A stretch of DNA of 42,542 bases from Candidatus Aerophobota bacterium (GTDB lineage Bacteria > Aerophobota > Aerophobia > Aerophobales > JAGGXI01): NCBI GenBank assembly GCA_034659655.1, contig JAYEHT010000207.1, positions 1 through 42,542 on the forward strand. Direction: 5' to 3'. The translations under genes were made by a program, and so were the position numbers. Shown one piece after another: positions 2,962 through 36,353 of the stretch; the first letter of the stretch is position 1, and each line of letters starts with the position of its first letter. The notes under the pieces are model-generated. The model saw only the letters and a list, made by a program, of their open reading frames with translations. It did no database searches and was not told the origin of the DNA.

Positions 2962-2977
2962 GACCCCCTTTTCTCAA

Positions 2978-17716: not shown

Positions 17717-20497
17717 ATGAACACAACTCCCAATATTATCGGGAAAATTTATGGTTCGCAGGATAATAGTATCTCTCTCAGAAATTCAATTGTAGAGAAA
17801 CTGAAAAAATTAGCTATAATACTTGTTATAGGAAGTATTATTGTAAGTTTTGTTGCGTCGGCCGTTTATGCCTGGCCCTCCAGCTGGCGGGCTTATACCA
17901 AGGGTGGAGATTTACTGTGGGATCCAAAAGATCAAAACCCGTCCGCGATAGATCTTAGAGGGGATAGTGGTTCCGCCGCTGGATTCTACTACCAGGATTC
18001 CAACGGACTTTACTTTCGACAAAGAGTAAATGCCAATCCTTCAGGTCCAGGTATATTTGCTCAATATGCATGGATGGTTCTCATAGAAAGCGATGGAGAT
18101 TCAACCACTTATGAGTGGTCACTGGGAGTGAATGGTATAGGTGAAGAAGTAGAATTATGGGAAAATACTGTTAAAAGCAACAGTCCTGGTGATTTGGCTG
18201 AAATCCAAAAATGGACGGGACTCACAGGAACTTATGCCCAAATTGTACTAGCTGATTCAAGTTTTGACAGTGATACAGACTATTTCGTTGACTGGTACAT
18301 ACCCTATACTACCTTCACTTTCCTGACTGGTCTCAATGAAAACTCCACCATCAGGTTCTTTTATGGCACTTCTGCCAATGCTCAAAATATTAATAAGGAT
18401 CTTCAAGCAGGTGATCCTGGTACCCTGTCTGAGGGGTTCGGTGATGCAGTTACTCCCAGTGGCGCTGTTCCTGTTATTCCGGACGTTGAGGTAGTTGCTC
18501 CTTCTGGCCAGACCGCAAATCCCGGGGAGAGCGTTATCTATAATTTCACCGTTAAGAATACTGGCAATACCCTTGATACCTATGAGCTTATTGCTCAATC
18601 CCAGCATGGCTTGCCGGTTGGCTCTCCATCCTCTATCACTGTTTCCCCAAACGATAGCAAAACAGTAGCAGTTAGTCTGAGTGTGCCTTCAGATGCTACT
18701 GCTGGTACAACTGATGAGTTAACCCTCACCGCTACTTCCAAAACAGACCCTGGTGTTAAAGATAGTGATACCACTACCACCACCGTAGGTGTGGTTCCTG
18801 CTGTAGAGGTAAAAGCACCCTTTGGTCAGAGTGCTAATCCTGGTGATGTGATAACTTATGAGTTTGTAGTAAGCAATAAGGGCAATAGCACCGATACTTA
18901 TAACTTAACTGCTCAATCCCAGCACGGCTGGCCGGTTGGCTCTCCTTCCTCTATCACTGTTTCTGCTGGTGAGAGCAGGACCGTCACCGTTACCGTCACT
19001 GTTCCTTCAGATACTTCGGATGGGATAACCGATGATTTGACTCTAACCGCAACTTCTCAGACCGATATCGCCATCAGTGATTCTGACATCACTATCACCA
19101 CAGTCACTGCGCCGCTTATGAGTATTAATAAAACTGACAACGTAAGTTCGGCAAATGTAGGTGATAGGTTGGTCTATACCATAACTTACGAGAATACAGG
19201 GAGCGGCGAAGCGATAGCCCAAATTACTGATATTCTCCCAGAAGGAGTAACCTATGATGCGGATGACCCGGCCACTCCTTCTCCGGATGAAATTCAAGGT
19301 CAAAAGCTTATTTGGAAAGATTCCATCAGTCCGGTCGCTGAAAACAGTGACAGCTTGATAATTACTATTCCAGTAAAGGTAAACCTGGATCTGGAAGATG
19401 AAACCACCATTACCAACCAAGCTGTTCTGGATTATACGGATCTTAATGGAAATCCTCTACCTCAAAAAACTGCCGAGGACGAGACTCTAATAAGGGCTCC
19501 CCAACTTACCCTTACCAAAGAGGTTAATAAGTTGGAGGCAGAGCGAGGCGACATTCTCGTATATTATCTTACTATTAAGAATAATGGCACCGGAACTGCC
19601 TATGGGGTCAATATAATAGATACCCTCCCTCGAGGACTTTCTTACCTTAAGGGTAGCTCTGCCTTGAATGGAACTTCCATAGATGACCCTACGGGAAGAA
19701 ATCCCTACATCTGGAGTGTACCTGATATCTTGGGTAATTCCCGGATAAACTTAAGTTATAAGGTAATTGTAAGCCCCAATGCTCCTCATAAGAAAGTTCA
19801 AAACCAGGCTGAGCTTGCCAGCTCCAACGCTCCCACGATTAAAGCTATTTCATCTTTGAAAATAGTTAAGGGTAAAGGTCCCCTGGAGCAAAAGGGAACT
19901 GTCCGGGGAGTAGTTTTTGAAGATACCAATGCTAATGGGAAGCAAGATTCTGGAGAGCCCGGTCTTACCAATGTGGAAATTAGACTTGATGGACCTCGAA
20001 CGGTGAAAACTGATAATACTGGTAACTATAAGTTTGAGGAAGTAGAGCAAGGTTGGCACGTGGTAGCTCTTGATTCCCGAACTCTACCCGAGGGCTATGT
20101 GCTTATTGAATCGGATTCTAAATTTGTGGATAATCTTGCTCCTGGGCAGACAAAATGGTTAAACTTTGCCATCAGGAGCCTCCCGGGAAAAATAGTAGGG
20201 GTAGTCTTTCTTGATGCAGATAGAGATGGAAAAAGAGACCCTGGCACCGCTGGTATTAGCGGAATCAGCATAGTTTTGAATGATACCATCACTGTAGACA
20301 CTGATAAGAATGGCAATTTTGTGTTCGACAAACTTCTCCGAGGAGAATATGATGTTCGGCTGGATACTAAAAAGCTGGGAAAGAAATACCGACTCACTAC
20401 AGATGAAATTTTGGAGATTTCTCTATCTCCGGGAGAGACCATTTCTGTAGATTTTGGCCTTCAGCCAAGACCTTATCTAATTATTAAGGTGGAGTAA
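17717..20497 (+). CDS. Cell-surface repeat protein: signal-anchor, WPxSW-type N-terminal domain, 2 CARDB/NEW3-like repeats, 2 DUF11-type repeats, 2 SdrD-B/Cna-B-like domains
   Basis: 926 aa. There are tandem ~100-aa repeats (VEVVAPSGQTANPGESVIYNFTVKNTGNTLDTY... / VEVKAPFGQSANPGDVITYEFVVSNKGNSTDTY...) at about 18487-19100. DUF11-like units are GDRLVYTITYENTG and GDILVYYLTIKNNGTG. The C-terminal units GVVFEDTNANGKQDSGEPGL...TDNTGNYKF and GVVFLDADRDGKRDPG...TDKNGNFVF are typical SD-repeat B-domain motifs. Confidence 0.8.
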   Translation: MNTTPNIIGKIYGSQDNSISLRNSIVEKLKKLAIILVIGSIIVSFVASAVYAWPSSWRAYTKGGDLLWDPKDQNPSAIDLRGDSGSAAGFYYQDSNGLYFRQRVNANPSGPGIFAQYAWMVLIESDGDSTTYEWSLGVNGIGEEVELWENTVKSNSPGDLAEIQKWTGLTGTYAQIVLADSSFDSDTDYFVDWYIPYTTFTFLTGLNENSTIRFFYGTSANAQNINKDLQAGDPGTLSEGFGDAVTPSGAVPVIPDVEVVAPSGQTANPGESVIYNFTVKNTGNTLDTYELIAQSQHGLPVGSPSSITVSPNDSKTVAVSLSVPSDATAGTTDELTLTATSKTDPGVKDSDTTTTTVGVVPAVEVKAPFGQSANPGDVITYEFVVSNKGNSTDTYNLTAQSQHGWPVGSPSSITVSAGESRTVTVTVTVPSDTSDGITDDLTLTATSQTDIAISDSDITITTVTAPLMSINKTDNVSSANVGDRLVYTITYENTGSGEAIAQITDILPEGVTYDADDPATPSPDEIQGQKLIWKDSISPVAENSDSLIITIPVKVNLDLEDETTITNQAVLDYTDLNGNPLPQKTAEDETLIRAPQLTLTKEVNKLEAERGDILVYYLTIKNNGTGTAYGVNIIDTLPRGLSYLKGSSALNGTSIDDPTGRNPYIWSVPDILGNSRINLSYKVIVSPNAPHKKVQNQAELASSNAPTIKAISSLKIVKGKGPLEQKGTVRGVVFEDTNANGKQDSGEPGLTNVEIRLDGPRTVKTDNTGNYKFEEVEQGWHVVALDSRTLPEGYVLIESDSKFVDNLAPGQTKWLNFAIRSLPGKIVGVVFLDADRDGKRDPGTAGISGISIVLNDTITVDTDKNGNFVFDKLLRGEYDVRLDTKKLGKKYRLTTDEILEISLSPGETISVDFGLQPRPYLIIKVE

Positions 20498-20614: not shown

Positions 20615-23600
20615 ATGAAAATGAGATCTAATATGGTGAGTGCATTTGCAAAGAAAAATTTGCCGTTCCGCTTTCATAAGCATCTTTCATTTTTATTTAC
20701 CGGTATTATTACTTTTTTTCTCCTTCCGGCATTATTTACTCAAATAGGTTTTTCTCAGGTGAGGATAACTGGCCCCACCGAGTTAACTGCCTGTAGTCAG
20801 GCGATCTTCACCATTGAGATTAAGAATGAAGGGCAAGTTTCTGCCTGTAATGTCATCGTAAGCGCTGAAATCCCCCCGGGGTTTGATTATATAGAGGATG
20901 ATCAGGGAGCATCTCTGGCGGATGATACACTTATCTGGACGATTGGACAACTAGAAGCAGGGGATAGATGGGTTGATTACCTTACCCTAAGGGCAACACC
21001 GGAGACAGCTAAGCCATCGGCAAAAGAAAATAGATTAGCCATCACCGTAACTTACGATTACTGTCCTGCTGAGGGGATTAATGATTTTTCTGAAGGTCCG
21101 GTTTATTCCAGCCCGGTGAAAGTTAGTTCTCCAGAATTTGCTCGACGTCTTGCTGGCCACAAAGTCGGCCAGCACAAAGTTCCCCCAACTGTCGAAGTAG
21201 AGATGACCGTCACTGCTGACATTCCCTCCCCCATAGAGAATGCCAAGCTAATTGATTATTTCCCTGCTGATTGGACTATTCTGAATTCAGGCGGTGGTCA
21301 GGTTGACCCCGTTAACCACACCATCACCTGGGACCTTGGCATACTCAGCGATTCAGTCTCTCAGAGCTACACTATCCTCAGTCCCCAAAAAACCTTACCC
21401 CCTACAAAATACTTGTTTCACTCCGAGCTGGTTTCAGGAGATTGCACAACAGCAAGCGCTGATTGGACAGTAGTAGTGGCCGACCCCACCGACTGGCCTG
21501 ACTCGTGGATTACTATTGACCAGGACCTTAATGAGAATGGGACGGAAGATGATTTGCGTGACGTAAAAACCGCCTTTTATAACTACGATGAGAACTATCT
21601 CTACCTGAGACTGTGCCTTTATGGGACTCCTGATTTCGCTGGTCCGTCTCGCTATAAGTGGTTTTTCGACCTCGGCGTAGGTGATAACCTATACATTTCA
21701 GGCAATAATATATTGGGTACTGAGTATCTACTGTTTGTGGAGGATACCAATAATGATGGCACAGGAGAGGTCTACCTTCTCGATGCTCATGGCTACGACC
21801 GATTTAGGGAATATGAGCCCAACATATACAAAACAAACCCTGGTCCAATTACTGACCCAACCATAGCTGGCTACCGATTTGATGGAAATTGCGTTGACCT
21901 GTATATCAAGCTGAGCGAATTGAAGGTTGACGGCGTGGGCAGGTCTAACCCCTCCGGCATAAACCTCACCTGGGCTACTGACCAGGAAAACCCAAACCTG
22001 GAGCAGGCGCCAATCACAGATAGAGCCAACACTTCTGATGTGCCCATCCACATAGCTCCTGTTATTGATGTCACCAAGACCGATTCACCTGACCCGGTCG
22101 AGACTGGGCAGAACATAACCTATACAGTTACCATTACTAACAGTGGTAACATAGATGTCCTCGACGACCCGAACAGCAATGAGTTTGAAGATAGCATCCC
22201 AGAAAATACAACTTATGCCACTGGCAGCATAATCGTCAATGGCACTCCCAACGACGATGATATCTCTGACGGCATAGGATATGACTCAGTAAATAATAAA
22301 ATCATCTGGAACGGCATTGTCCCTGCTGGCGGCAGTGTCACCATAAGTTTTCAGGTCACCGTAAAGTCGCCTCTGCCTAATGGCACCCAAATATCAAATC
22401 AGGGATTTGTTTGGTGGGATTCAGATGGAGACGGCGTAAATGATGCCTATGAGCCCACTGACGACCCGCTCACTACCGAGGATAACGATCCCACCATCAC
22501 CACAGTTCACTCGGCTCCACTGCTGATGATAACCAAGGATGACTGGCCTGACCCGGTCAAGCCTGGGGAGACCCTGACCTATACCATAATCTATCAAAAT
22601 ATCGGCAATGGAGTTGCCCATAATGTAGTCATCACCGAGACTTATGATGCAAATGTTACCTTCTCATCAGCTTCGCCTTCGCCTGATAGCGGAACAAACA
22701 ATCGCTGGACAATCGCAAGCCTTTCCCCTGCAGACGGGCAGCAGACGGTAACTATAAATGTCACCGTCAATGCTAACGAGGGAACAACCCTGCATAACTA
22801 TGTTAACATCACCTGTGATGAGGGGATATTTGAGGATGATACTGAGGAAACAAAGGTCAGCAGTGCTATCCTGATTTTGAGCAAGGCGGATAACCCTGAC
22901 CCTGTCCCCGCCGGCGAGCTATTGAGCTATACCCTCACCTACCAGAACATGGCAACGGACAACGTTACTGAAACCGTGATTACGGATACGCTCCCCTATG
23001 AGGTGAGCTATGTTTCAGCAAGTCCGGCACCAAACTCTACCTCAGATGGCACATTGACCTGGAATATCGGAAAGCTTGCACCAGGCGCCTCCGGCAACAT
23101 AACCATAACTGTCAGGGTCAATACACCTATAGACAGCGGGACGGTGATAACTGATAACGTTACTATTACCGGTTACCTTGGAGGTGCAGAGAAAGTCGGT
23201 ACGGATGTTGAGGAAACCACTATCATCTCGGCTCCCATCATTGCCGTTGAAAAGACCGATTCCCCCGACCCGGTTGAGGCTGGGGGAACCCTCACCTACA
23301 ACATAACTGTAACCAATAGCGGTAATGCTGATGCCACAGGAGTTAGCGTAGTAGATGACTATAATGAGACTATCCTTACCATAACGGATGCAGGTGGTGG
23401 TGTTGATAACGGTGACACCATAACCTGGGATGGAGGGATAACCATTCCCGCCGCAGGCTCCGTTTCTTACGCTGTCACTGCCAAGGTAGCATCTCCGCTT
23501 GATAACGGCATCAAGCTGTTCAATACTGTTTCTGTGGACTGTGACCAGGGGGTAACTGCCAGCACAACAGAGATTACCACGGTTCACTCGGCTCCACTGC

Positions 23601-26600
23601 TGATGATAACCAAGGATGACCGGCCTGACCCGGTCAAGCCTGGGGAGACCCTGACCTATACCCTCACCTACCAGAATACGGGAAATGAGGTTGCTCATGA
23701 TGTGGTCATCGCCGACTACCTCCCTGCTGATGTAACCTATATTTCAGCAAGTGGGACTCTGTCTTTCTCAGACAGGACATTAACATGGGATATTGGGGAC
23801 CTTTCGCCGCAAGTTGGAGAGCAAACACTAACCATAAATGTCACAGTCAACTCGCCATTACCTGATGGAACGACTCTGGAGAACACTGCTAACATCTGGT
23901 GCAGCCAGGATGTAGGCTCCTACATAACAGAGAGCACCACAGTTCACTCGGCTCCACTGCTGATGATAACCAAGGATGACCGGCCTGACCCGGTCAAGCC
24001 TGGGGAGACCCTGACCTATACTTTAATCTATGAAAACACCGGGAATGCTGTTGCTCATAATGTGGTTATCACCGAGACTTATGATCCAAACGTTACCTTC
24101 TCCTCGGCCTCTCCCTTACCTGATAGTGGGACGAACAACACCTGGACAATCCCGAGCCTGTCGCCCACAGATGGACAGCAGACGATAACCATAGAAGTCA
24201 GCGTCATCTCACCATTGGCTGATGGGACAATCCTGAATAACTATGTCACCATTAGCTGTGCTGAGGGTGTATCTGATGATGATAGTGAGGGGACAATAAT
24301 TAACAGTGAGGCTATCTTAATTTTGAGCAAAGCTGATTATCCTGACCCTGTTCCTGCTGGTAACTTATTGACCTATACTCTCACCTACCAAAATACGGGA
24401 ACAGCTACCACCACCGGAACTGTGATCACAGACACCCTCCCCAATGAGGTGACCTATGTTTCAGCAACCCCGGCACCAAGCTCAATATCGGGCAAAGTAT
24501 TGACATGGGAGATTGGGGACCTTGCGCCTGATGGCTCACATACTATAACGATAGAAACTAGGGTCAACTCACCATTACCTGATGGTACAAAGATAAGAAA
24601 TAGAGCCTCCATCACCTCCAGCCTTGGAGTTGGCGCTGATGTTGAGGATACCACTGTTGTTTCAGCTCCCATCCTTAGCATCGAGAAGACAGATTCGCAA
24701 GACCCAGTAGAGGGTAGTGGTACATTAACCTACACCATAACCATAGCCAACAGTGGCAACGCTGATGCTACTAATGTGGTAGTGACTGAGACCTATGATG
24801 TGAACTTTGCATTCTCATCAGCCACGCCAGCCCCTGATGCTGGGACTAACAATCAGTGGACGTTTGCCATCATTGCTGCCGGGGCAAGTAAGACCATCAC
24901 TATTACAGGAACCGCCCTTCTAAAAGGTGAAGCATCTCTAATCAATACGGTCTCCTTTACTTCAGATAATGCAGGAGGCGGAAGTGTAACCGAGACAACA
25001 GGCGTAATCTCGGCCAACCTGGAAGTTACCAAGACCGATACACCTGATCCAGTCATAGCCGGTAACATCTTATCTTATTCAATTACTGTAACCAACCTGG
25101 GTCCCTCTGATGCCCAGAACGTGGTGGTGAGCGAGAGCTATGATACAAACTTTATATTCTCATCAGCCACCCCAGCTCCTGATACGGGGACAGAAAATCA
25201 GTGGACCCTTGCCACCATTGCTTCGGGCGCAACTGAGACCATCACCATTACCGGCACAGTTAGTGCCTCAGCCAGTGGCAGCCTGAGTAATACTGTTGCC
25301 CTTACATCTGATACCGCTGATCCGAATACTGACAACAACACTGTGACTGAGCCGACGGTGGTTAACACCTCGGCCGACCTTCTTATGGAAAAGAGCGGCC
25401 CAGCTACAGGAACAGCAGGTACCAATATCACCTACACTCTAACCGTAACCAATCTCGGACCTTCAGATGCAGTAGATGTGAGTGTTACAGATTCTATACC
25501 TACAGGAACCGAATGGGTAAGTGATACCTCTCTTGGTGCCTATGATCCAGCAACTGGAGTATGGACTATTGGCAATCTCACTGCGGGGAGCACCACTTCC
25601 CTGGATATAACCGTCAAGATCCTTTCGGGAACCACAGATTCGCTAGTGAATGCCGCTGTGGTCAGTACGACTACCTCTGATCCTGATACAACCAATGATA
25701 CTGCTTCGGTAACCACTACCGTGAATACCTCAGCTGATCTTTCGATTACAAAGATAGATTCACCCGATCCGGTCATAGCCGGCACCGAGTTGACCTATAC
25801 CATAACCGTAACCAACCTGGGTCCCTCTGATGCCCAGGATGTAGTAGTAACTGATCCTCTACCGGAAGAATTAAACAATGCTCAATATTCTACGGATAAT
25901 GGCCTAACTTGGAGTCCTTATACTGGTTCAGTCTCCTTAGGTACTCTCACCTCTGGAGGTGAAGTAAGCTTCTTAATTAAAGCCAATGTAGATCCCGCTG
26001 TGGCTCAGGATACCGTACTTAGCAATACCACCACGGTCAGCTCAGTTACTCCTGATTCGGATAGTACTAACAACAGCGCTACTGAGCCGACCACGGTCAA
26101 TACCTCAGCTGACCTTATAATGGCCAAGACTGGTCCAACCTCAGGTACTGCTGGTGAGACAATCACCTACGCCTTGACCGTAACTAACAATGGTCCCTCT
26201 GACGCTCTTGAGGTGGCTGTAACTGATGCCATCCCCACCGGAACCGAATGGGTAAGTGATACTTCTGGTGGAGCCTACACGCCAGCAACAGGAATATGGA
26301 CTATTGGCAAACTTGCTGCTGGGAGTAGTGTTTCCCTGGATATAACCGTAAAAATACTTTCAGGAACCACAGATTCGCTAGTGAATACCGCTGTGGTCAG
26401 TACGACTACCTTTGATCCTGATACCACTAATAATGAGGCTGCGGTAAGCACTACGGTCAACACCTCGGCCGACCTGGTCATCAGCAAGAGCGATTCACCC
26501 GATCCGGTAGTTGCTGGTGAGACATTAACCTATACCTTAAAGGTGACCAACAATGGTCCTTCAGATGCCCAGAATGTGGTGGTGACAGATACTCTACCAG

Positions 26601-29600
26601 CAGGTTTAAGTAATGCTCAATATTCTCTTGATAATGGCGCCAACTGGAATCCTTATCCTGGCTCAGTTTCCTTAGATACCACACCTTATCCAGGTTCGAC
26701 TGGTTTCTTAATTAAAGCCGATGTGGATAATAATATAGCTCCGGGTACCGTGCTTAGCAACACAGCCACAGTGAACTCTGATACTTATGACTCAAACCCC
26801 AACAATAACAAGGGAACCCAGGACACTACAGTCATCACCCCTATACTAACGATAACCAAGGACGATTACCCTGAGCCTGTTAAACCTGGGGAGACCCTGA
26901 CCTATACTTTAATCTATGAAAACACCGGGAATGCTGTTGCTCATAATGTGGTCATCACCGAGACTTATGATCCAAACGTTACCTTCTCCTCGGCCTCTCC
27001 CTTACCTGATAGTGGGACGAACAACACCTGGACAATCCCGAGCCTGTCGCCCACAGATGGACAGCAGACGATAACCATAGAAGTCAGCGTCATCTCACCA
27101 TTGGCTGATGGGACAATCCTGAATAACTATGTCACCATTAGCTGTGCTGAGGGTGTATCTGATGATGATAGTGAGGGGACAATAATTAACAGTGAGGCTA
27201 TCTTAATTTTGAGCAAAGCTGATTATCCTGACCCTGTTCCTGCTGGTAACTTATTGACCTATACTCTCACCTACCAAAATACGGGAACAGCTACCACCAC
27301 CGGAACTGTGATCACAGACACCCTCCCCAATGAGGTGACCTATGTTTCAGCAACCCCGGCACCAAGCTCAATATCGGGCAAAGTATTGACATGGGAGATT
27401 GGGGACCTTGCGCCTGATGGCTCACATACTATAACGATAGAAACTAGGGTCAACTCACCATTACCTGATGGTACAAAGATAAGAAATAGAGCCTCCATCA
27501 CCTCCAGCCTTGGAGTTGGCGCTGATGTTGAGGATACCACTGTTGTTTCAGCTCCCATCCTTAGCATCGAGAAGACAGATTCGCAAGACCCAGTAGAGGG
27601 TAGTGGTACATTAACCTACACCATAACCATAGCCAACAGTGGCAACGCTGATGCTACTAATGTGGTAGTGACTGAGACCTATGATGTGAACTTTGCATTC
27701 TCATCAGCCACGCCAGCCCCTGATGCTGGGACTAACAATCAGTGGACGTTTGCCATCATTGCTGCCGGGGCAAGTAAGACCATCACTATTACAGGAACCG
27801 CCCTTCTAAAAGGTGAAGCATCTCTAATCAATACGGTCTCCTTTACTTCAGATAATGCAGGAGGCGGAAGTGTAACCGAGACAACAGGCGTAATCTCGGC
27901 CAACCTGGAAGTTACCAAGACCGATACACCTGATCCAGTCATAGCCGGTAACATCTTATCTTATTCAATTACTGTAACCAACCTGGGTCCCTCTGATGCC
28001 CAGAACGTGGTGGTGAGCGAGAGCTATGATACAAACTTTATATTCTCATCAGCCACCCCAGCTCCTGATACGGGGACAGAAAATCAGTGGACCCTTGCCA
28101 CCATTGCTTCGGGCGCAACTGAGACCATCACCATTACCGGCACAGTTAGTGCCTCAGCCAGTGGCAGCCTGAGTAATACTGTTGCCCTTACATCTGATAC
28201 CGCTGATCCGAATACTACCAACAACACTGTGACTGAGCCGACTGCGGTCAACACCTCGGCTGACCTTCTTATGGAAAAGAGTGGTCCAGCTACAGGAACA
28301 GCCGGCACCAATATCACCTACACTCTCACCCTAACCAATCTCGGACCTTCAGATGCAGTAGATGTAAATGTTACAGATTCTATACCTATAGGAACCGAAT
28401 GGGTGAGTGATACCTCTCTTGGTGCCTATGATCCAGCAACCGGTATCTGGACTATCGGCAATCTCACTGCGGGGAGCACCACTTCCCTGGATATAACCGT
28501 CAAGATCCTTTCGGGAACCACAGATTCGCTAGTGAATACTGCTACGGTAAGTTCAATTACCGATGATCCTGATACAATTAATGATACTGCTTCGGTAACC
28601 ACGACTGTTAATACCTCAGCAGATGTTCTTATTACCAAGTCTGACTCCCCTGACCCGGTGATAGCCGGTGAGACATTAACCTATACCTTAACCATAGCCA
28701 ACAATGGGGGTCCATCTTCAGCCCTTAACATCTCTATTACAGATACATTACCGGCTGGAGTGACCTATGTCAGTGATACCTCAGGTGTAACACCGACTGT
28801 TTCAGGCAGTGATTACACCTGGAACTTTACCGGTACAAACTCAGGTCCTGCCGGTCTAACCGATGAGGATAAAGATAGCTTTGCTGATGACCTTACTCCT
28901 AATGCCAGCTTCTCCCTTACCATAACGGTAAAGGTGGATGCAAACTACACCGGAACAAGCCTCTCCAATACGGCCACGGTAAGTTCAGATACATATGATC
29001 CTAACCCTGCCAATAACAGTGCCACTGAGACAACTTATGTTTTACTTAAGCCAAGCCTCAGCATCGAAAAGCATGTCATACCATCTTCTGGTTATCCTGG
29101 TGATACTTTCACTTTTACCCTGGTAGTTAAGAATACTGGAGAAATTCTCGTGGATCCTGTTCCGGTTAGTGATACTGTGCCAGTTGCCCTTAGTCAGCCT
29201 TTTGAGGCAACTCCATCGGCAAGCAGTGTTGTGGGACAGAATATTAAGTGGGATAATGTTGGTCCTCTTGGTCCGGGAGACTCAGTGACTCTTACCTATA
29301 AAACTCAGGCTCAACCTGGATATACAGGAGTTTACTATAATACTGCGCGTGTAATGGGAACTACCCCGGAGGGTGAAATCATCACTCACGAGGCCAGGGT
29401 CCCGGTAACCATACTCAAATGCTCTCCTGCTTTGATAACAAAGAAAGAGATAGTAAAGATAAGTCCCGAGATTATAAGGTTTAGTTTTACCGTTCAAAAC
29501 GTGAGTAATTGTACTGCCTACAATATAGATATTAGCGATACCTTACCTTCTGGATTCAAATACCTCTCAGCAAGTACGTATCTTAGCTGGCCTGGGGGAA

Positions 29601-32600
29601 TTTATACCGAAGATCCTCAAATTAGCCAGGGGGGAAAAAGGCTTTTTTGGGAGAGCTCCATTACTCTGGCAGGAGGTGAGCCTGTGGGTGAGTCTCTGAA
29701 CTTGAGCTTTGATATAGTAGTAACTGATGAGGCAAAGCCAGGTGTTACCTATACCAATGCTGCCTGGGCCACAGGAGAGAATCAATGGGGAGACCCAATT
29801 GAGCCTACCACCGATGAGCCTGATGATACTGATCCCGATGATTACGACGAAGTAGAATTCACCATCGTCCTTCCACGACTTCCAAAGCTTGAGTTAGAAA
29901 AGACCCAAGCTATTATACCTCCACTTCCCTGCGAAGTAGCCAGGGCTGAGTTGGAGAAGGTCTGGTTCCAAACTGACATCTCTATGTATGCATCCACAGA
30001 ACTTCTTTTCACTGGCAAAGATTTCCTCCGGTGGGCAGAAAGAAAGGATTTAACCATTGATCCATTATCACTGCGGCCAACTGGAATATCTCTTCTCAGT
30101 GCCCAATCTCACAAGTATTCGGCGAATAATATTCGTAGTCTGGTTTTTGATTCCGGGATGGGACTTAACCTTCGCTATGGCCCCAGAATAGAGCAAATGG
30201 CTAGTAAAGAAAATGTCTCTAATGAAACTGCTCTGCAAAGACTTCTGGAGAAATACGCTCAAGCCGTCGGACTTGAAAAGCTTCCTGAAAATCCTTGGCT
30301 AATTTTTGCCCCTTACGAGGGGGGTGACCCCCGATATATCCAGGAGATGAAGCCCGAAGACTGGTCAACCCGAAGGTGGCAAGACTATGACCTCGATATA
30401 GTGCCCAGTGCTCTGGGTCAATCCCTGGTAAGAGAAGTCCTTTTAGCAAGAGAACTTTTGGCTTCTAATCATACCCAGGAGGGAAAAGAAGATATACAGG
30501 GTCAATATCTGGGTAAGGATGCCTTGAGTGGATATCTTGGTCTGGTGGTGATGGAAGAGACCGCTAACAAACTATTGTTATTAGAGAAGCTCTTAGCCCT
30601 TACCAGGGAAAAAGGATACTTCCCCCACCGAATAAAAGTTAAATTTGACCTTAAAGATAAGCCTATAGATTACACAATAACTGATTCCTCAAGTCATCTC
30701 TTTGACCAAATCTCGCTTCTCTGGGGGTTGCTTGAATTTAAACTTCTCTCAGATCCTAATATAAAAGATAATTATGATCGCCTCTTTGGGAAGGGTAAAA
30801 TGTTCTCATTGGCCTTGTATGAGCTCTCTTCCAAGCTGGCCGAGAAGGTTTTAGAGAATATCTACCAGATGCACTATAACAAAGATATAGGGAGTCTAAT
30901 TGAGGTAGTTCAGCCAAGCTCCCAGATTTCTCAGTCTCAATCTATCTCTACTACTCAAGCTGGTCTTTCTCTCCTGGTTTTAGAAAGAGCTTACCATGGT
31001 CTTTATGATGATCCTGTACTACAAAAAAGAATTAAGGAACTTGCGCTCAGGCAGAGTGGATTCTTACTTAATCATCTTAGGGCACCTGAAGGTGGTTTCT
31101 ATGATGGTTATAATCTGAAAAATAATAAAGTTATCTATGGGAAGAAAAGAAGCTTAGTTTCTCAAGTAGCCGCCATTAGAGGTCTTTTAGCTACCTACAA
31201 GCTCACCAGTGATGAAAAGTTAATAGAAGTTGCCAGAAAAGTATTTGATTACCTGGAAAAAAGATTCTGGAATGAGGACTTCAGAATTTACACCAGCGCG
31301 ACCAACTCCACCATTGGCTATCGTTATACTCCTTTAAATGTTGGTTTAACTATAGGAGCTTTAAGAGAGCTGATTTACCTATCAGATAAAGCTCAAGCTA
31401 TTCATATCTTCTCCAGGCTTACTGATTTCTTTCACAACATTCTGGAAGAGGCAGGTCTTGAGCTCTCCTGGGCCAACCTTGAGGGAAAATTACCTATAGT
31501 TCAAGATTCTGGTAGAAATCAGATTAGAGAAGTAGGAGTAATTGAGGCTTCCTTTGGGGTTGCTCCCGTGCTCCAGTCAGAAATTTATCTTATCCTCCCA
31601 CCAAGAGTAAGCTTGATTAATCTTTATGAGCGAGGTCCCTGTGAGGAGAGCCAGGCTATTCTGGAAGAACCCTGGTTCGTGACAGATGTGGCTATGTATG
31701 CTGCTATAGAACTGGGGAAATATCCAGAGGAAGGGATTGGCAAGAAGATGAGAGAGTATTCAGATCTTAACCTCACCACCCTTACTCTCTCTTCCGGTAT
31801 GGGGCTACCCCTTAAATATGGACCTCTACTTTTGAACAAAGCAGAAATGAAAGGAGTCTCGGCGGAAGAGCAACTGGAGAAAGATCTTCAAGAATATGCT
31901 CGTTTGAGCAATTTAAAAGATAGGCCCAATGATTTATCTTATATATTCGCTGAATATGCTTCGGGAGATCCCCATATCAAAGAACCAAAAGCACTCAGGT
32001 GGAATCCAGACACCTTGGATAAGACTCTTAGGATGAGTGCTTTGGGAATGACTCTGGTAAAACAGGTGCTTTCTGTCAGGAATCTTCTCCTCACCAATCA
32101 TACACTTGATAATCAAGAGGACCCAGCCGGACCGTATCTGGGGAGAAGCAACCTTAAGGGTTATCTGGGACTGGTTTTAACCGCCGAAATGGTCAACAAG
32201 CTAAAGTTTTTAGAAAAACTTTTCACACTTTCTCCTCAAGGAGAGTACTTACCTCATCTGGTGAAGGTCACCTTTGATGATGAAGGAAGACCGCTGGACT
32301 ACCAGATAATCGATGCATCGAGTGACCTTTTTGATCAGCTCTCCCTCCTCTGGGGATCAAGTGAACTCAGAAGATTTGCTGATCCTAAGATAGAGGATAA
32401 CTATAATAAGCTTTTTGGTGAAGGCAAACTTTTTCCCTCTGAATCTTATGAGCTTTCTACCAGCCTTGCCCGGCTTGTCTTTGAGAACCTCCTGAAAATG
32501 CATTACGATAAAGATTTAGGGACATTGGTAGATAGAGCTGTCGAAGGAGAGAAGATGCGGCGAATTTCCACCATAAACGCTGGTCTTGCCATCCTGGCAC

Positions 32601-33583
32601 TTAGAAGTTTTTACGATAGCTTTGCTGATGAACCTGAACTTCAAAAAGAGGCGAAGAATCTTATAACCTCACAAACTAAGTTTATTATAGAGAAGCTAAA
32701 GGATAAGAGAGGTGGTTTCTACAGTAGCTATGAGGAATCCGGCTTGCAATCTGAACCTTTAGTGGGGGATAAAACTCTCGCTTCCCAATCAGCAGCTATC
32801 AGGGGACTCCTCACCGCCTACCGGTTGACCAAAGACAAAAAATATCTGGAACAGGCAGAAAAGGCATTTGATTACTTACAGGCCAACTTCTGGGATAAGA
32901 ATCTCGAGGTCTATAAGAATAAACCTGAGGAAATAGCCGAAGAGCTCGGATATTCCTATTCCCCTCTGGATGCGGGTCTTACTACAGGAGCCTTAGAAGA
33001 TCTTGCCAGTCTTTCTTCACCCATTAAGGCTGACCTTATTCGCCTCTATCTTACTAAATTCCTCCAGAAAGTGGTTGATAAAGCAGGTCTACAGCTACCC
33101 GGGCGAAGAACTATTCGCCTCTTAACTCCCTATCCTCGGATAGAAGAAGAATACTTTGCTCCGGTCATGGCCTCTCGAATAAGTTTAACTAGTCTTATTA
33201 GAAAGATTAGGAAAAAATTTGCTCAACCCGAAGATATCATTATATACACTATTACTGTTAAAAATTTAGGAGAAGACATCGCTTATAATGTGGTAGTAAA
33301 GGATATCTTACCTCTCGGGGTAACTTACATCGCCTCCGAGCCGGAAGCCAGTGTGAAGGGTAGAGAGTTGAACTGGAGCCTGGGAGAGATTTCGCCAGTC
33401 TCTCCTCCTTTACATATTAAAGTTTTAGTTGCTGTTTCTTCAGAGATTTCCCAGGGTACTCACCTGCGAAACTGTGCTATTATAAGCTACACTGACAGTG
33501 AAGGTAGATACCAGCCAGTGAAGGAAGCCTGTGTAGAGGCTGAAGTTCGAGGAAAGATAGTAACCAGCTTTCCCGCCTATTAA
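20615..33583 (+). CDS. Giant (4322 aa) secreted/surface protein: signal-anchor, Ig-like units, WPxSW-type domain, more than 20 DUF11-type repeats, two tandem helix-rich toroid-like modules, terminal DUF11 repeat
   Basis: A single uninterrupted 12969-nt ORF with AGGAGG 8 nt upstream of the ATG and an N-terminal hydrophobic segment (LSFLFTGIITFFLLPALF). The recurrent motif is (T/S)K(T/A)D.PDPV..G..LTYT(I/L)T..N.G. See the sub-features below. Confidence 0.9.
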   Translation: MKMRSNMVSAFAKKNLPFRFHKHLSFLFTGIITFFLLPALFTQIGFSQVRITGPTELTACSQAIFTIEIKNEGQVSACNVIVSAEIPPGFDYIEDDQGASLADDTLIWTIGQLEAGDRWVDYLTLRATPETAKPSAKENRLAITVTYDYCPAEGINDFSEGPVYSSPVKVSSPEFARRLAGHKVGQHKVPPTVEVEMTVTADIPSPIENAKLIDYFPADWTILNSGGGQVDPVNHTITWDLGILSDSVSQSYTILSPQKTLPPTKYLFHSELVSGDCTTASADWTVVVADPTDWPDSWITIDQDLNENGTEDDLRDVKTAFYNYDENYLYLRLCLYGTPDFAGPSRYKWFFDLGVGDNLYISGNNILGTEYLLFVEDTNNDGTGEVYLLDAHGYDRFREYEPNIYKTNPGPITDPTIAGYRFDGNCVDLYIKLSELKVDGVGRSNPSGINLTWATDQENPNLEQAPITDRANTSDVPIHIAPVIDVTKTDSPDPVETGQNITYTVTITNSGNIDVLDDPNSNEFEDSIPENTTYATGSIIVNGTPNDDDISDGIGYDSVNNKIIWNGIVPAGGSVTISFQVTVKSPLPNGTQISNQGFVWWDSDGDGVNDAYEPTDDPLTTEDNDPTITTVHSAPLLMITKDDWPDPVKPGETLTYTIIYQNIGNGVAHNVVITETYDANVTFSSASPSPDSGTNNRWTIASLSPADGQQTVTINVTVNANEGTTLHNYVNITCDEGIFEDDTEETKVSSAILILSKADNPDPVPAGELLSYTLTYQNMATDNVTETVITDTLPYEVSYVSASPAPNSTSDGTLTWNIGKLAPGASGNITITVRVNTPIDSGTVITDNVTITGYLGGAEKVGTDVEETTIISAPIIAVEKTDSPDPVEAGGTLTYNITVTNSGNADATGVSVVDDYNETILTITDAGGGVDNGDTITWDGGITIPAAGSVSYAVTAKVASPLDNGIKLFNTVSVDCDQGVTASTTEITTVHSAPLLMITKDDRPDPVKPGETLTYTLTYQNTGNEVAHDVVIADYLPADVTYISASGTLSFSDRTLTWDIGDLSPQVGEQTLTINVTVNSPLPDGTTLENTANIWCSQDVGSYITESTTVHSAPLLMITKDDRPDPVKPGETLTYTLIYENTGNAVAHNVVITETYDPNVTFSSASPLPDSGTNNTWTIPSLSPTDGQQTITIEVSVISPLADGTILNNYVTISCAEGVSDDDSEGTIINSEAILILSKADYPDPVPAGNLLTYTLTYQNTGTATTTGTVITDTLPNEVTYVSATPAPSSISGKVLTWEIGDLAPDGSHTITIETRVNSPLPDGTKIRNRASITSSLGVGADVEDTTVVSAPILSIEKTDSQDPVEGSGTLTYTITIANSGNADATNVVVTETYDVNFAFSSATPAPDAGTNNQWTFAIIAAGASKTITITGTALLKGEASLINTVSFTSDNAGGGSVTETTGVISANLEVTKTDTPDPVIAGNILSYSITVTNLGPSDAQNVVVSESYDTNFIFSSATPAPDTGTENQWTLATIASGATETITITGTVSASASGSLSNTVALTSDTADPNTDNNTVTEPTVVNTSADLLMEKSGPATGTAGTNITYTLTVTNLGPSDAVDVSVTDSIPTGTEWVSDTSLGAYDPATGVWTIGNLTAGSTTSLDITVKILSGTTDSLVNAAVVSTTTSDPDTTNDTASVTTTVNTSADLSITKIDSPDPVIAGTELTYTITVTNLGPSDAQDVVVTDPLPEELNNAQYSTDNGLTWSPYTGSVSLGTLTSGGEVSFLIKANVDPAVAQDTVLSNTTTVSSVTPDSDSTNNSATEPTTVNTSADLIMAKTGPTSGTAGETITYALTVTNNGPSDALEVAVTDAIPTGTEWVSDTSGGAYTPATGIWTIGKLAAGSSVSLDITVKILSGTTDSLVNTAVVSTTTFDPDTTNNEAAVSTTVNTSADLVISKSDSPDPVVAGETLTYTLKVTNNGPSDAQNVVVTDTLPAGLSNAQYSLDNGANWNPYPGSVSLDTTPYPGSTGFLIKADVDNNIAPGTVLSNTATVNSDTYDSNPNNNKGTQDTTVITPILTITKDDYPEPVKPGETLTYTLIYENTGNAVAHNVVITETYDPNVTFSSASPLPDSGTNNTWTIPSLSPTDGQQTITIEVSVISPLADGTILNNYVTISCAEGVSDDDSEGTIINSEAILILSKADYPDPVPAGNLLTYTLTYQNTGTATTTGTVITDTLPNEVTYVSATPAPSSISGKVLTWEIGDLAPDGSHTITIETRVNSPLPDGTKIRNRASITSSLGVGADVEDTTVVSAPILSIEKTDSQDPVEGSGTLTYTITIANSGNADATNVVVTETYDVNFAFSSATPAPDAGTNNQWTFAIIAAGASKTITITGTALLKGEASLINTVSFTSDNAGGGSVTETTGVISANLEVTKTDTPDPVIAGNILSYSITVTNLGPSDAQNVVVSESYDTNFIFSSATPAPDTGTENQWTLATIASGATETITITGTVSASASGSLSNTVALTSDTADPNTTNNTVTEPTAVNTSADLLMEKSGPATGTAGTNITYTLTLTNLGPSDAVDVNVTDSIPIGTEWVSDTSLGAYDPATGIWTIGNLTAGSTTSLDITVKILSGTTDSLVNTATVSSITDDPDTINDTASVTTTVNTSADVLITKSDSPDPVIAGETLTYTLTIANNGGPSSALNISITDTLPAGVTYVSDTSGVTPTVSGSDYTWNFTGTNSGPAGLTDEDKDSFADDLTPNASFSLTITVKVDANYTGTSLSNTATVSSDTYDPNPANNSATETTYVLLKPSLSIEKHVIPSSGYPGDTFTFTLVVKNTGEILVDPVPVSDTVPVALSQPFEATPSASSVVGQNIKWDNVGPLGPGDSVTLTYKTQAQPGYTGVYYNTARVMGTTPEGEIITHEARVPVTILKCSPALITKKEIVKISPEIIRFSFTVQNVSNCTAYNIDISDTLPSGFKYLSASTYLSWPGGIYTEDPQISQGGKRLFWESSITLAGGEPVGESLNLSFDIVVTDEAKPGVTYTNAAWATGENQWGDPIEPTTDEPDDTDPDDYDEVEFTIVLPRLPKLELEKTQAIIPPLPCEVARAELEKVWFQTDISMYASTELLFTGKDFLRWAERKDLTIDPLSLRPTGISLLSAQSHKYSANNIRSLVFDSGMGLNLRYGPRIEQMASKENVSNETALQRLLEKYAQAVGLEKLPENPWLIFAPYEGGDPRYIQEMKPEDWSTRRWQDYDLDIVPSALGQSLVREVLLARELLASNHTQEGKEDIQGQYLGKDALSGYLGLVVMEETANKLLLLEKLLALTREKGYFPHRIKVKFDLKDKPIDYTITDSSSHLFDQISLLWGLLEFKLLSDPNIKDNYDRLFGKGKMFSLALYELSSKLAEKVLENIYQMHYNKDIGSLIEVVQPSSQISQSQSISTTQAGLSLLVLERAYHGLYDDPVLQKRIKELALRQSGFLLNHLRAPEGGFYDGYNLKNNKVIYGKKRSLVSQVAAIRGLLATYKLTSDEKLIEVARKVFDYLEKRFWNEDFRIYTSATNSTIGYRYTPLNVGLTIGALRELIYLSDKAQAIHIFSRLTDFFHNILEEAGLELSWANLEGKLPIVQDSGRNQIREVGVIEASFGVAPVLQSEIYLILPPRVSLINLYERGPCEESQAILEEPWFVTDVAMYAAIELGKYPEEGIGKKMREYSDLNLTTLTLSSGMGLPLKYGPLLLNKAEMKGVSAEEQLEKDLQEYARLSNLKDRPNDLSYIFAEYASGDPHIKEPKALRWNPDTLDKTLRMSALGMTLVKQVLSVRNLLLTNHTLDNQEDPAGPYLGRSNLKGYLGLVLTAEMVNKLKFLEKLFTLSPQGEYLPHLVKVTFDDEGRPLDYQIIDASSDLFDQLSLLWGSSELRRFADPKIEDNYNKLFGEGKLFPSESYELSTSLARLVFENLLKMHYDKDLGTLVDRAVEGEKMRRISTINAGLAILALRSFYDSFADEPELQKEAKNLITSQTKFIIEKLKDKRGGFYSSYEESGLQSEPLVGDKTLASQSAAIRGLLTAYRLTKDKKYLEQAEKAFDYLQANFWDKNLEVYKNKPEEIAEELGYSYSPLDAGLTTGALEDLASLSSPIKADLIRLYLTKFLQKVVDKAGLQLPGRRTIRLLTPYPRIEEEYFAPVMASRISLTSLIRKIRKKFAQPEDIIIYTITVKNLGEDIAYNVVVKDILPLGVTYIASEPEASVKGRELNWSLGEISPVSPPLHIKVLVAVSSEISQGTHLRNCAIISYTDSEGRYQPVKEACVEAEVRGKIVTSFPAY
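23999..25330 (+). repeat. Intragenic direct repeat, copy 1 (1332 bp)
   Basis: Compared line by line with 26885-28216 (offset 2886 nt = 962 codons). I found one difference, at 24066 (T versus C). Confidence 0.95.
26885..28216 (+). repeat. Intragenic direct repeat, copy 2 (1332 bp)
   Basis: See copy 1. The identical antisense ORFs in the track (24454/27340, 24853/27739) confirm the 2886-nt offset. Confidence 0.95.
29888..31475 (+). other. Helix-rich toroid-like module 1 of the giant protein (residues about 3092-3620)
   Basis: It is paralogous to module 2, with helix-pair motifs DSSSHLFDQISLLWG, ISTTQAGLSLLVL, GGFYDGY, SQVAAIRGLLATYKLTSDEK, FDYLEKRFWNED and YTPLNVGLTIGAL. The fold assignment is inference. 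Confidence 0.45.
31613..33110 (+). other. Helix-rich toroid-like module 2 of the giant protein (residues about 3667-4165)
   Basis: Motifs DASSDLFDQLSLLWG, ISTINAGLAILAL, GGFYSSY, SQSAAIRGLLTAYRLTKDKK, FDYLQANFWDKN and YSPLDAGLTTGAL. The fold assignment is inference. Confidence 0.45.
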
Positions 33584-33758: not shown

Positions 33759-34316
33759 ATGAAAAAGATAACCTGGTTAGTAGTCTTAATCCTGGTCGTT
33801 AATGGAGGCTTTGTTGTCAGAGCTCTTCCAGCTCAAGAGACCTCGCCACCAGACATAGAGTTTTCTGAAGAGCTGTGGGATTTTGGAACTATCAAGGAGG
33901 GAGAAAAGGTAACCCATACGTTTGAGGTGAGGAATTTAGGAGGGGCTAAACTTGTGATCGGTAAAGTAAGAACTTCTTGTGGATGTGCGGCTGCCCTGGT
34001 TTCTTCGCAAGAGGTTGCTCCGGGTGGGAGTGGTCAAATCAAAGTAATTTTCGACTCCTCGGGATATAAAGGGAAGATTAGTAAGAACATTTATGTTGAA
34101 TCAAATGATCCTGACGAACTTCGAAAAGTACTTACCATAAAGGCAAATGTTGAGGTCTCACCAAAACCCACTATTAAATTAATGGAAAATAGCTGGGATT
34201 TTGGATTGATTACTGAAGGGAGGAAGCTTACATACATCCTCTCAGTAAAAAATACGGGCGAACAAGAATTAGTGGTTAGCAAGATAAGCACATCTTCTCA
34301 TTATACTCATTTTTGA
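33759..34316 (+). CDS. DUF1573-repeat protein, 5' portion (signal peptide, one complete DUF1573 unit, a second unit cut by a stop)
   Basis: Signal peptide MKKITWLVVLILVV. The first unit is WDFGTIKEGEKVTHTFEVRNLGGAKLVIGKVRTSCGCAAA...YVESNDP. The second unit starts WDFGLITEGRKLTYILSVKNTGEQELVVSKISTS and then hits TGA at 34314. Confidence 0.65.
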   Translation: MKKITWLVVLILVVNGGFVVRALPAQETSPPDIEFSEELWDFGTIKEGEKVTHTFEVRNLGGAKLVIGKVRTSCGCAAALVSSQEVAPGGSGQIKVIFDSSGYKGKISKNIYVESNDPDELRKVLTIKANVEVSPKPTIKLMENSWDFGLITEGRKLTYILSVKNTGEQELVVSKISTSSHYTHF

Positions 34317-34796: not shown

Positions 34797-36353
34797 ATGG
34801 GGAGACCGTTAATTTTTCTTAATAATACTCTATCTATCTTTCTCTTTTTAACAGTAATACTCTTAAACGTAGGTGCGCCGAGAATTTCCAAAGTCTTTGC
34901 TTTACCAGAAGGTAAAGTAAGAATGTTTATGTTCTATGCAGAAGATTGTCAGCATTGTCATTCCATAATTAATGAACTCCTGCCGGAGCTAAAGGAAAAA
35001 TATGGACCGATAATTGAGACAAAGTTATTTGAGATAAACGAGCCTGAAAACTATGACTTCTGGGTAGAGCTGGAAAAAGAGTGCGGAGATACGGAAAATG
35101 AGGTTCCTACAATATTCATCGATAATTATGTGCTGGGTAGTTGGGAGGAAATAGAGGAAAATCTGGAGAACATAGTCAAGCAGTCTATTCTTAAAGGAGG
35201 GTGTGACTGGCCTTCACTCCCAGGGGTAACAGTTGCTGAAGTTGAAGATTTTAGTCCGACCAGTAAAACTATTTATTTAGCTTACTTTTCCCAGCCGGGA
35301 TGTAAGGAATGTGAGCGGGCGCATTATATAATAAAGAATCTAAAGCTAAAATATCCCAATTTAAAGGTGAAGGAATACGACCTTTCTCTTGGGGAAAATA
35401 AAGAGTTAGAAGTTGCTTTATGTATGAGATATGGAGTTCCAAAGAGAAAATGGCTGGTGAGCCCGGCGGTCTTTATAGGTAAAGATTATCTGTTAGATAA
35501 AAAGATTAGTGAAGTTAATTTAAAAAAGATACTTTTGAAATACAGGCCGGTAGGGTCGCATCCTCCCCGGGAGAGTGTAGAGAGAGAACTTGCCCGGGCT
35601 AAAAAGGCTCTGGTAGGTGAATTCTGGTCCTGGAGGCCCCTTACGGTTATGGTGGCTGGCTTGATAGATGGCGTTAATCCCTGTGCTTTTGCCGTCATCA
35701 TATTTTTCGTATCCTGGTTAATAATTATTGGACGGAAAGGTAAGACAATATTGGCTGTAGGTTTAATCTACACTCTTGCCGTGTTCCTGGCCTATCTTCT
35801 GATTGGCATAGGGGCCCTCAGATTCGTCCAGGCACTGGTAGTTTTTCCATCAATTTCAGTAATAATCTATTCTCTCACGGTAATGGTTGCTTTAGCACTC
35901 GGTTTTTTTAGTCTGTATGATTATTTCAAGGCAAGAAAAGGTGAATGGAAAGAGATTAAACTTCAATTACCAGAGTTTTTAAAGAAAAGGATTCATAAGA
36001 CGACCCATCAATTTATGGGGTCCGATGCTAAGATGAGGACCCATCTGGTAGCAGCATTTGTGGTAGGATTTTTGGTATCCTTATTTGAGTTTCCCTGCAC
36101 AGGGCAGATCTATCTTCCCACCATAGTCTTTGTTACTCAAATGCCCGACTTGAAAATCAACGCCTTGAGCTACCTGATACTTTACAATCTTATGTTTATC
36201 ATTCCTCTGGGAATTATACTGGGGTTTACCTATTGGGGAACATCTGCGCCCCGGTTCGTTCAAATTTTGGAAAAGAATACAGGCCTGGTAAAAATATTAA
36301 CTGCTCTCTTTTTCTTTGGTTTAGCTGGATACTTAATCTATGCTATCCTGTAG
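34797..36353 (+). CDS. Membrane thiol-disulfide oxidoreductase: two thioredoxin-like CxxC domains fused to a DsbD/CcdA-like transmembrane domain
   Basis: 518 aa with an N-terminal anchor. The CxxC motifs are CQHC (FMFYAEDCQHCHS) and CKEC (FSQPGCKECERA). The C-terminal polytopic domain has the two conserved membrane cysteines (DGVNPCAFAV and FEFPCTGQIY) typical of the cytochrome c biogenesis/DsbD transmembrane family. The gene starts 4 nt after the DUF1573 stop. Confidence 0.75.
   Translation: MGRPLIFLNNTLSIFLFLTVILLNVGAPRISKVFALPEGKVRMFMFYAEDCQHCHSIINELLPELKEKYGPIIETKLFEINEPENYDFWVELEKECGDTENEVPTIFIDNYVLGSWEEIEENLENIVKQSILKGGCDWPSLPGVTVAEVEDFSPTSKTIYLAYFSQPGCKECERAHYIIKNLKLKYPNLKVKEYDLSLGENKELEVALCMRYGVPKRKWLVSPAVFIGKDYLLDKKISEVNLKKILLKYRPVGSHPPRESVERELARAKKALVGEFWSWRPLTVMVAGLIDGVNPCAFAVIIFFVSWLIIIGRKGKTILAVGLIYTLAVFLAYLLIGIGALRFVQALVVFPSISVIIYSLTVMVALALGFFSLYDYFKARKGEWKEIKLQLPEFLKKRIHKTTHQFMGSDAKMRTHLVAAFVVGFLVSLFEFPCTGQIYLPTIVFVTQMPDLKINALSYLILYNLMFIIPLGIILGFTYWGTSAPRFVQILEKNTGLVKILTALFFFGLAGYLIYAIL

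Follow-up and report, generated by a model that had tools for sequence, protein, structure and literature searches.

What are the two helix-rich modules that stand near the C-terminus of a giant stalk-bearing protein, and what might they do there? The question is raised by a 42,542 nt stretch of DNA from a Candidatus Aerophobota bacterium (contig JAYEHT010000207.1 of assembly GCA_034659655.1; hereafter the window). Here, a giant open reading frame (ORF) encodes, in order, a signal-peptide-like leader, a long stalk of immunoglobulin (Ig)-like DUF11/CLIPPER repeats, the two modules, which we call A and B, and a terminal DUF11 unit (Table 1). In our reading, to which we give a probability of roughly 55 %, the modules are glycan-directed and probably catalytic heads that present a conserved pocket.

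The modules are paralogues. BLASTP aligned A with B over 521 amino acids at 42 % identity and 59 % positives (E=3e-126), each copy being approximately 530–565 amino acids long, and the two paralogous copies proposed near the C-terminus by the initial annotation were thereby borne out. All 14 motifs quoted in that annotation sit where they were said to be (e.g. DSSSHLFDQISLLWG at residue 3357 and DASSDLFDQLSLLWG at residue 3900), as do the cysteine codons at nt 29930 and 31640. The range it gave, 29888–33110, stopped about 90 nt short at the right end, missing the last 30 or so residues of module B, which form its C-terminal strands.

The predicted structures support identification of the modules as (alpha/alpha)6 six-hairpin toroids. 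Module A was modelled with AlphaFold2 from an alignment of 13 module copies, taken from the window and six relatives recovered by word-indexed searches, and reached a mean predicted local distance difference test score (pLDDT) of 85.6 and a predicted template modelling score (pTM) of 0.90. Its six inner helices span module residues 29–41, 173–192, 271–287, 355–371, 423–440 and 482–497. Every one of the six family motifs (TD-x-AMYA, (P)SALG-x-x-L, S-x-LFDQ-x-SLLWG, ST-x-x-GL-x-x-AL, Q-x-AA-x-RGLLAAY and YTPL-x-VGL-x-GAL-x-EL) opens one of six regularly spaced helices in the model, and these motif-bearing helices alternate with longer ones, the pattern that marks a set of six inner and six outer helices. 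The model also contains a helical and beta insertion (residues ~44–170), two beta-hairpins, and N- and C-terminal strands (17–23 and 565–569). The earlier count of about 12 helices therefore holds for the toroid core but not for the whole module, where the model has 16 helices including the insertion.

A Foldseek search of the module A model against the PDB, a check that the initial annotation had called for, returned 138 matches at E≤0.001, and the best 50 were all six-hairpin proteins. Cellobiose 2-epimerases, N-acylglucosamine 2-epimerases, glucose/mannose isomerases and YihS led the list (for 3vw5_A, E=1.1e-8 and a template modelling (TM) score of 0.62 normalised to the target), followed by glycoside hydrolase (GH) families 88, 76 and 8 and a YyaL-like protein (7tkv), with the best matches all at 10–15 % identity. 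The folds of which the modules had first seemed reminiscent, namely six-hairpin glycosidases, N-acylglucosamine 2-epimerases and YyaL, are thus exactly those that top the search. A model of the A–B pair (1,119 amino acids, 16-sequence alignment) had a pLDDT of 86.8 and a pTM of 0.88, and in it module B is likewise a toroid. We read the pair as a compact unit because a pTM of 0.88 would be unlikely unless the relative placement of the toroids was confidently predicted. Searching Foldseek with the tandem model matched the same single-toroid enzymes and gave no two-toroid precedent, whilst a search against viral structures returned generic six-hairpin glycosidases only.

Sequence profiles placed the modules less precisely. 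No Pfam-A or NCBIfam model reached its curated threshold on module A, module B or six tested single-module relatives. One relative, P0041, passes PF06662 (C5-epim_C) with 26.6 bits against a threshold of 23.3, but over 47 residues, which is a single hairpin. Sub-threshold matches, each to one hairpin, were seen for GH127, GH76, C5-epim_C, GlcNAc_2-epim, the cellobiose 2-epimerase EpiA and LanM, and were centred on the Q-x-AA-x-RGLL helix. The single-hairpin scores fell short for PF07221 (11.2 bits against 23.4) and for the NCBIfam EpiA model NF041848 (15.8–18.8 against 800), as did the score for GH76 (PF03663, 11.5–14 against 25.9). Comparison with PDB sequences by phmmer and profile matched cellobiose 2-epimerases and GH76 only, with E down to 1e-7, and the profile scores were sums of several weak hairpin matches in different registers. 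Judged by these profiles, the modules belong to the six-hairpin superfamily but appear to fall in no described family, in agreement with the view first taken of them. The toroid represents an uncatalogued family of a known fold, and its setting (CLIPPER stalk, tandem toroids and DUF11, with or without a third toroid) is a recurrent and hitherto undescribed variation on giant surface proteins.

Comparison with the nearest described systems places the modules similarly. Members of the N-acylglucosamine 2-epimerase (AGE) superfamily, which includes cellobiose 2-epimerase and the YihS sulfoquinovose/mannose isomerase (PF07221; 3VW5, 3WKF, 2RGK), share the (alpha/alpha)6 barrel, are the best Foldseek matches (E 1e-8 to 1e-6, TM score 0.55–0.62 over the whole target) and match several hairpins weakly at profile level, the Q-x-A-A-x-R-G-L-L-x-A-Y signature of an inner helix among them. 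The module is only 10–14 % identical to them and about 170 residues larger, and it would be extracytoplasmic and lies within a giant protein, whereas AGE enzymes are cytoplasmic and single-domain. Six-hairpin glycoside hydrolases (clan CL0059: GH76 alpha-1,6-mannanase, GH88 unsaturated glucuronyl hydrolase, GH8 and GH127) have the fold and an extracellular carbohydrate context in common with it, with Foldseek E values of 1e-5 to 1e-6 and sub-threshold Pfam hairpin matches. However, no GH76 Asp-Asp or GH127 Cys/Zn site was recognised in the module, and its Pfam and PDB sequence matches to these hydrolases never exceed one hairpin. The YyaL/SSP411 type, a Thioredox_DsbH domain followed by a six-hairpin domain (7TKV), is a distant fold match at Foldseek rank 39, and one YyaL-like protein appeared at E=7e-6 in a profile search; in contrast to this type, the module has no fused thioredoxin domain, and the match spans 15 % of the query.

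Residue conservation was calculated from 150 module copies, in a module numbering to which 3091 is added to obtain protein numbering. The conserved polar positions are T29, D30, E38, S89, E142, W164, D168, K228, Y244, H247, D266, S269, D273, Q274, W279, E283, H329, Q426, R431, W461, Y468, Y480, T481 and R493. This set includes acidic and histidine residues (e.g. D30, D168, D266, D273, H247 and H329), of the kind that the initial annotation had suggested looking for. In the AlphaFold2 model, most of these positions lie in or just before the first turn of an inner helix, or in the last turn of an outer helix or the hairpin leading from it into an inner helix; the exceptions are E38, K228, E283 and R493, which are mid-helix, and S89 and E142, which belong to the N-terminal insertion. 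In six-hairpin barrels such helix ends share one face, which is the active-site face of AGE enzymes and six-hairpin glycosidases. On this topology the conserved residues would cluster into one pocket per module, on the side where the six inner helices have their N-termini, with a putative lining of T29-D30, W164, D168, Y244, H247, D266, S269, D273, Q274, H329, Q426, R431, W461, Y468 and Y480.

The conserved set is kept in both window modules, except for P142 in A and E493 in B, and free secreted relatives of distant phyla share it. A different pattern was seen in giant relatives with three modules. Their third copies (e.g. P0007 residues 4350–4801 and P0005 residues 1093–1542) retain the fold motifs but have lost many residues of the set, for example W164, D273, H247, R431 and W461 in P0007, and the C-terminal third copy thus looks degenerate and pseudo-enzyme-like. 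Two intact copies and one degenerate copy are what would be expected if the conserved residues work rather than merely hold the fold. The terminal DUF11 unit of the window protein found its best BLAST matches between modules 2 and 3 of P0009, P0011, P0008, P0007 and others, and is the orthologue of the spacer between those modules. We therefore consider the window protein to be a two-module form that ends where others continue to a third copy.

An exhaustive profile search of 1.84 billion cluster representatives showed that the family is sizeable: 744 representatives pass E≤0.001, of which 349 also pass E≤1e-10 and 136 E≤1e-30, and members are spread over at least ten groups of phylum level; the word-indexed homologue searches had recovered only three to seven relatives, all named 'hypothetical'. 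Architectures were read from the best 150 of the 744. Tandem pairs occur in at least 35 representatives, 17 of which exceed 3,000 amino acids (up to 5,693), and many of the shorter tandem-pair proteins are contig-truncated fragments of larger ones. The large proteins carry two full modules in tandem at about 70–85 % of their length, and in many of them the pair is followed by a unit of approximately 130 amino acids and then by a third module at the extreme C-terminus. In the species-level genome collection, the giants belong to Ca. Moduliflexus/UASB270 and to metagenome-assembled genomes of Thermotogae, whilst others are labelled Bipolaricaulota. The arrangement of stalk and tandem pair, in many cases with DUF11 after it, is kept among representatives less than 50 % identical from several phyla. 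The architecture that at first seemed unfamiliar is not a one-off.

Single-module proteins of about 550–770 amino acids, the non-giant form in which the initial annotation had proposed to look for the module, were found in Planctomycetota, Bacteroidota, Krumholzibacteriota, Myxococcota/Bradymonadales, Gammaproteobacteria, Acidobacteria and Sericytochromatia. A signal-peptide-like leader is present in 45 of the 50 that have complete N-termini, and several end in a type IX secretion system (T9SS) C-terminal sorting domain detected by Pfam; such domains are typical of secreted carbohydrate-active enzymes and adhesins. Seven of the 113 family proteins shorter than 1,100 amino acids (P0064, P0079, P0088, P0068, P0095, P0039 and P0067) have one CxxCH motif, which may lie on either side of the toroid; a cytochrome c domain was confirmed by Pfam in the first three, and a plastocyanin-type cupredoxin is fused to the module in one member, P0062.

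Separately, a DxDxDG motif (e.g. GETGGDSDGDGIPFIPEQ) is present near the C-terminal end of the module in 27 of the 50 single-module proteins. It resembles a calcium-binding loop, and the loop is equivalent to residues ~3620–3635 of the window protein. The window modules do not have the motif, and the corresponding loop was modelled with low pLDDT when A was predicted as a single module.

Taken as glycan-directed heads, the toroids would be the functional heads of a fibre. They would form a compact pair where the giant protein, exported through the Sec pathway, nears its C-terminus, and the DUF11/CLIPPER stalk would keep them away from the producer cell. The pocket would bind, and probably act chemically on, a carbohydrate-type ligand in a surface, a matrix or a neighbouring cell wall. 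The paralogy, the fold, the spread of the family, its recurrent architecture, the conserved residues and the export signals are results of the analysis. We infer the carbohydrate nature of the ligand, and catalysis beyond binding, from the fold neighbours, the secreted relatives, the kept polar set, the degenerate third copies and the recurrent architecture.

Several observations weigh against this reading. The catalytic His pair of AGE enzymes, which we take to lie where inner helices 4 and 6 begin and to be joined by an Arg of hairpin 1 (R52/H243/H374 in RaCE, 3VW5), was not found at the topologically equivalent helix starts; these read S-T-x-x-(A/L)-G-L and Y-T-P-L-x-V-G-L, without a conserved His, and the only conserved His residues in the family are H247 and H329. 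GH76 enzymes use consecutive catalytic Asp-Asp, and no such pair was seen at the equivalent helix starts or in the conservation table. An hhalign comparison of the family alignment with Escherichia coli YihS gave a 70-column match at a probability of 1 %, and the pocket itself is placed by secondary-structure topology. Given neither the AGE His pair nor the GH76 Asp-Asp, the chemistry, if the modules are enzymes, is not readable from their structural neighbours. Eight members are fused to cytochrome c or cupredoxin, as carbohydrate-active enzymes seldom are, and among the neighbour genes at the loci examined no glycan-utilisation or polysaccharide genes were conserved beside family members.

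A more specific proposal, which we advance tentatively, is that the modules are a new extracytoplasmic enzyme family whose catalytic apparatus is unlike that of AGE or known GH enzymes; tandem copies would be carried on isopeptide-type fibres and act there as a tethered enzyme. Such an enzyme may use the D266/S269/D273/H329 cluster, plus the lone cysteine in the giants, and would be displayed at a distance from the cell by deep-branching Thermotogae, Bipolaricaulota, Ca. Moduliflexus and the organism of the window. On this view the fusions of free relatives to cytochrome c and cupredoxin would suggest that an extracellular polymer undergoes an oxidative or electron-coupled reaction.

Non-catalytic, lectin-like adhesive heads, which would make the protein a fibrillar adhesin with an unusual head for glycan or other ligands, are in our view a rather doubtful alternative. 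The giant protein has the export-signal-like leader and stalk of tandem repeated domains by which fibrillar adhesins are recognised, and its DUF11/CLIPPER context corresponds to what the CLIPPER and DUF11 portions of one account of these adhesins describe, namely a signal peptide, a CLIPPER-type array whose domains form intramolecular isopeptide bonds and build the stalk, and a non-repeat domain at one end (PMC12617251). In its CLIPPER and DUF11 passages that source lists adhesion, stalk and sorting domains; the window protein differs in that its head consists of tandem toroids of about 550 amino acids, is C-terminal and is bracketed by DUF11 units. Also in favour of binding heads, no AGE, GH76 or other six-hairpin catalytic motif was recognised in the modules, and none of the acidic residues is invariant, D273 occurring in 81 % of the 150 copies. 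On the other hand, E38, E142, D168, K228, H247, D266, D273, E283, H329, R431 and R493 are common to the giants and to distant secreted single-domain proteins, a charged and polar set that exceeds the usual needs of a binding site, and the T9SS-tailed secreted single-domain forms resemble enzymes.

Redox-linked chemistry, or docking of an electron carrier, seems improbable. The toroid would in that case bind a redox-active substrate or cofactor and exchange electrons through cytochrome c or cupredoxin partners, and in the giants it would act on the surface of the cell or against an insoluble substrate. The fusions themselves argue for this reading, and the cupredoxin-fused P0062 adjoins a gene with faint multihaem-cytochrome Pfam matches (L033 2029–3207), whilst a thioredoxin/DsbD-like gene with sub-threshold scores lies downstream of the giant ORF in the window. 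However, the fusions are a small minority, neither the window protein nor the other giants carry a haem or copper domain, a conserved Cys/His/Met cluster of the kind that typifies metal or cofactor sites is missing from the toroid, and the structural neighbours are all sugar isomerases or glycosidases.

Each window module contains one cysteine (Table 1), as do those of the nearest relatives P0013, P0016 and P0017, giving two in the 1,100-residue pair. A cysteine occupies this column in 54 of the 150 module copies, nearly all from multi-module proteins, and its presence covaries with D30 and S174. In another clade two more cysteines are conserved (columns 479 and 567); these are jointly absent from the clade of the window and probably form a disulfide of their own. 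The lone cysteine could possibly form an A–B inter-module disulfide, provide a free catalytic thiol or simply mark a clade. The thioester domains (TEDs) of complement C3 and alpha-2-macroglobulin (A2M) share the fold class, in that an alpha/alpha toroid follows many beta-sandwiches, with a further beta-sandwich behind it and a Cys near the toroid N-terminus. A thioester of the C3/A2M or bacterial type is not supported, as both CxEQ and an accompanying Gln are missing: from the cysteine on, module A reads CEVAR and module B CEESQ, none of the alignment columns has Gln in ≥85 % of the 54 copies with the Cys, and many of these copies have G, A, L, S, Y, H or R in place of Q274. That the lone cysteine forms a reactive thioester by which the fibre is bonded covalently to a target is thus very improbable, despite its fixed position, since in addition the window protein has no MG, CUB or bait-region matches, most single-module members (all those tabulated) have no Cys yet keep the pocket residues, the best 50 Foldseek matches are AGE and GH proteins without a TED, and an inter-module disulfide explains two cysteines per pair equally well.

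If the glycan-directed heads are indeed enzymes, these proteins would be enzyme-tipped fibres rather than simple adhesins, the giant DUF11/CLIPPER proteins of uncultured lineages would have to be reread, and the modules would add a new candidate to the carbohydrate-active (or redox-coupled) families; should their role be limited to binding, they would constitute a new class of adhesin head. In either case the family, sizeable as it is, has no Pfam or NCBIfam model and no solved structure, and our searches found no relevant literature on toroid-headed fibrillar adhesins, Moduliflexus adhesins or six-hairpin–cytochrome c proteins. Its members form a conserved C-terminal pair or triplet in some of the largest bacterial proteins known (3,400–5,700 amino acids) and also occur as free secreted proteins, and these single-module homologues are tractable targets for expression and structural work.

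Table 1. Positions of the giant ORF, its parts and surrounding genes in the window
Feature	Position (nt)	Strand	Basis or remark
Giant ORF, 4,322 aa / 12,969 nt	20615..33583	+	ORF list, translation, Pfam on segments
Basic and hydrophobic leader, aa 1–47	20615..20755	+	Read from sequence by eye
Ig-like stalk of DUF11/CLIPPER, DUF7927, DUF7507 and DUF7619 repeats	20777..29884	+	Pfam and translation reading
Toroid module A, aa 3098–3664	29906..31606	+	Family hidden Markov model (HMM) envelope, AlphaFold2, Foldseek
Lone Cys of module A, aa 3106	29930..29932	+	14 residues before T of TD motif
Toroid module B, aa 3669–4196, paralogue of A	31619..33202	+	BLASTP, HMM, pair model, residue table
Lone Cys of module B, aa 3676	31640..31642	+	Equivalent column
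Terminal DUF11/CLIPPER unit	~33215..33496	+	Pfam PF01345, E=3.2e-12
Y2-type transposase fragment	13625–14077	+	PF04986, E=1.3e-18; just upstream of surface-protein gene cluster
811-aa porin-like outer-membrane beta-barrel (Porin_4, DUF2490, weak MtrB_PioB)	15133–17568	+	Upstream of giant ORF
926-aa Ig-rich protein (DUF11, SdrD_B, CarboxypepD_reg)	17717–20497	+	Upstream of giant ORF
185-aa DUF1573/HYDIN-type Ig-like protein	33759–34316	+	Directly downstream of giant ORF
518-aa ORF, thioredoxin-/glutaredoxin-like and DsbD_2 transmembrane matches, all sub-threshold	34797–36353	+	Two genes downstream

Examination of the remainder of the giant ORF revised one point of the initial annotation, which had taken the N-terminal hydrophobic segment as a possible anchor. 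With its basic n-region, an h-region of about 22 residues and a following GFS/Q, and with the first DUF11 unit starting at residue 55, the leader resembles a Sec signal peptide that is cleaved off, not a membrane anchor. Repeats of DUF11/CLIPPER type were assigned by Pfam to residues 55 to ~1000 and ~2729–3091 (PF01345, E=2.7e-56 for residues 1–1000 and E=1.2e-28 for residues 2729–3091) and by reading of the translation to residues ~1001–2728. The single DUF11 unit expected after the toroid pair was recovered and is followed by the end of the protein. Pfam gave DUF11 only, and no T9SS C-terminal domain, in the last 160 residues, and no LPXTG or PEP-CTERM motif was apparent on reading the C-terminus. 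The distal position on the stalk that the initial annotation derived for the toroids from an N-terminal anchor is therefore conjectural.

Gene clustering at 30 loci identified no neighbour gene conserved across phyla, and Pfam found nothing related in the genes downstream of the Moduliflexus and Thermotogae giants. In the window, the beta-barrel and Ig-rich genes upstream may encode an anchor or partner of the giant protein, and the giant homologue P0007 has a comparable SdrD_B/CarboxypepD_reg/Big_9 gene directly beside it (L035 8082–10004). The 518-residue ORF downstream looks like a membrane thiol:disulfide oxidoreductase and may be relevant to the lone cysteine of the toroids.

Two further observations concern the integrity of the giant genes. 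The stalk in the window contains a direct duplication of 1,853 bp at 96 % identity (23965–25816 and 26851–28702), which may have arisen when about five DUF11 units were recently gained by segmental expansion, or may be an assembly collapse/expansion artefact. Elsewhere in the family, P0001 (814 amino acids) and the overlapping next gene (900 amino acids, DUF11) appear to be one giant gene split by a frameshift (L002 2127–7261), P0001 ending with the first residues of a second module that is continued in the next ORF.

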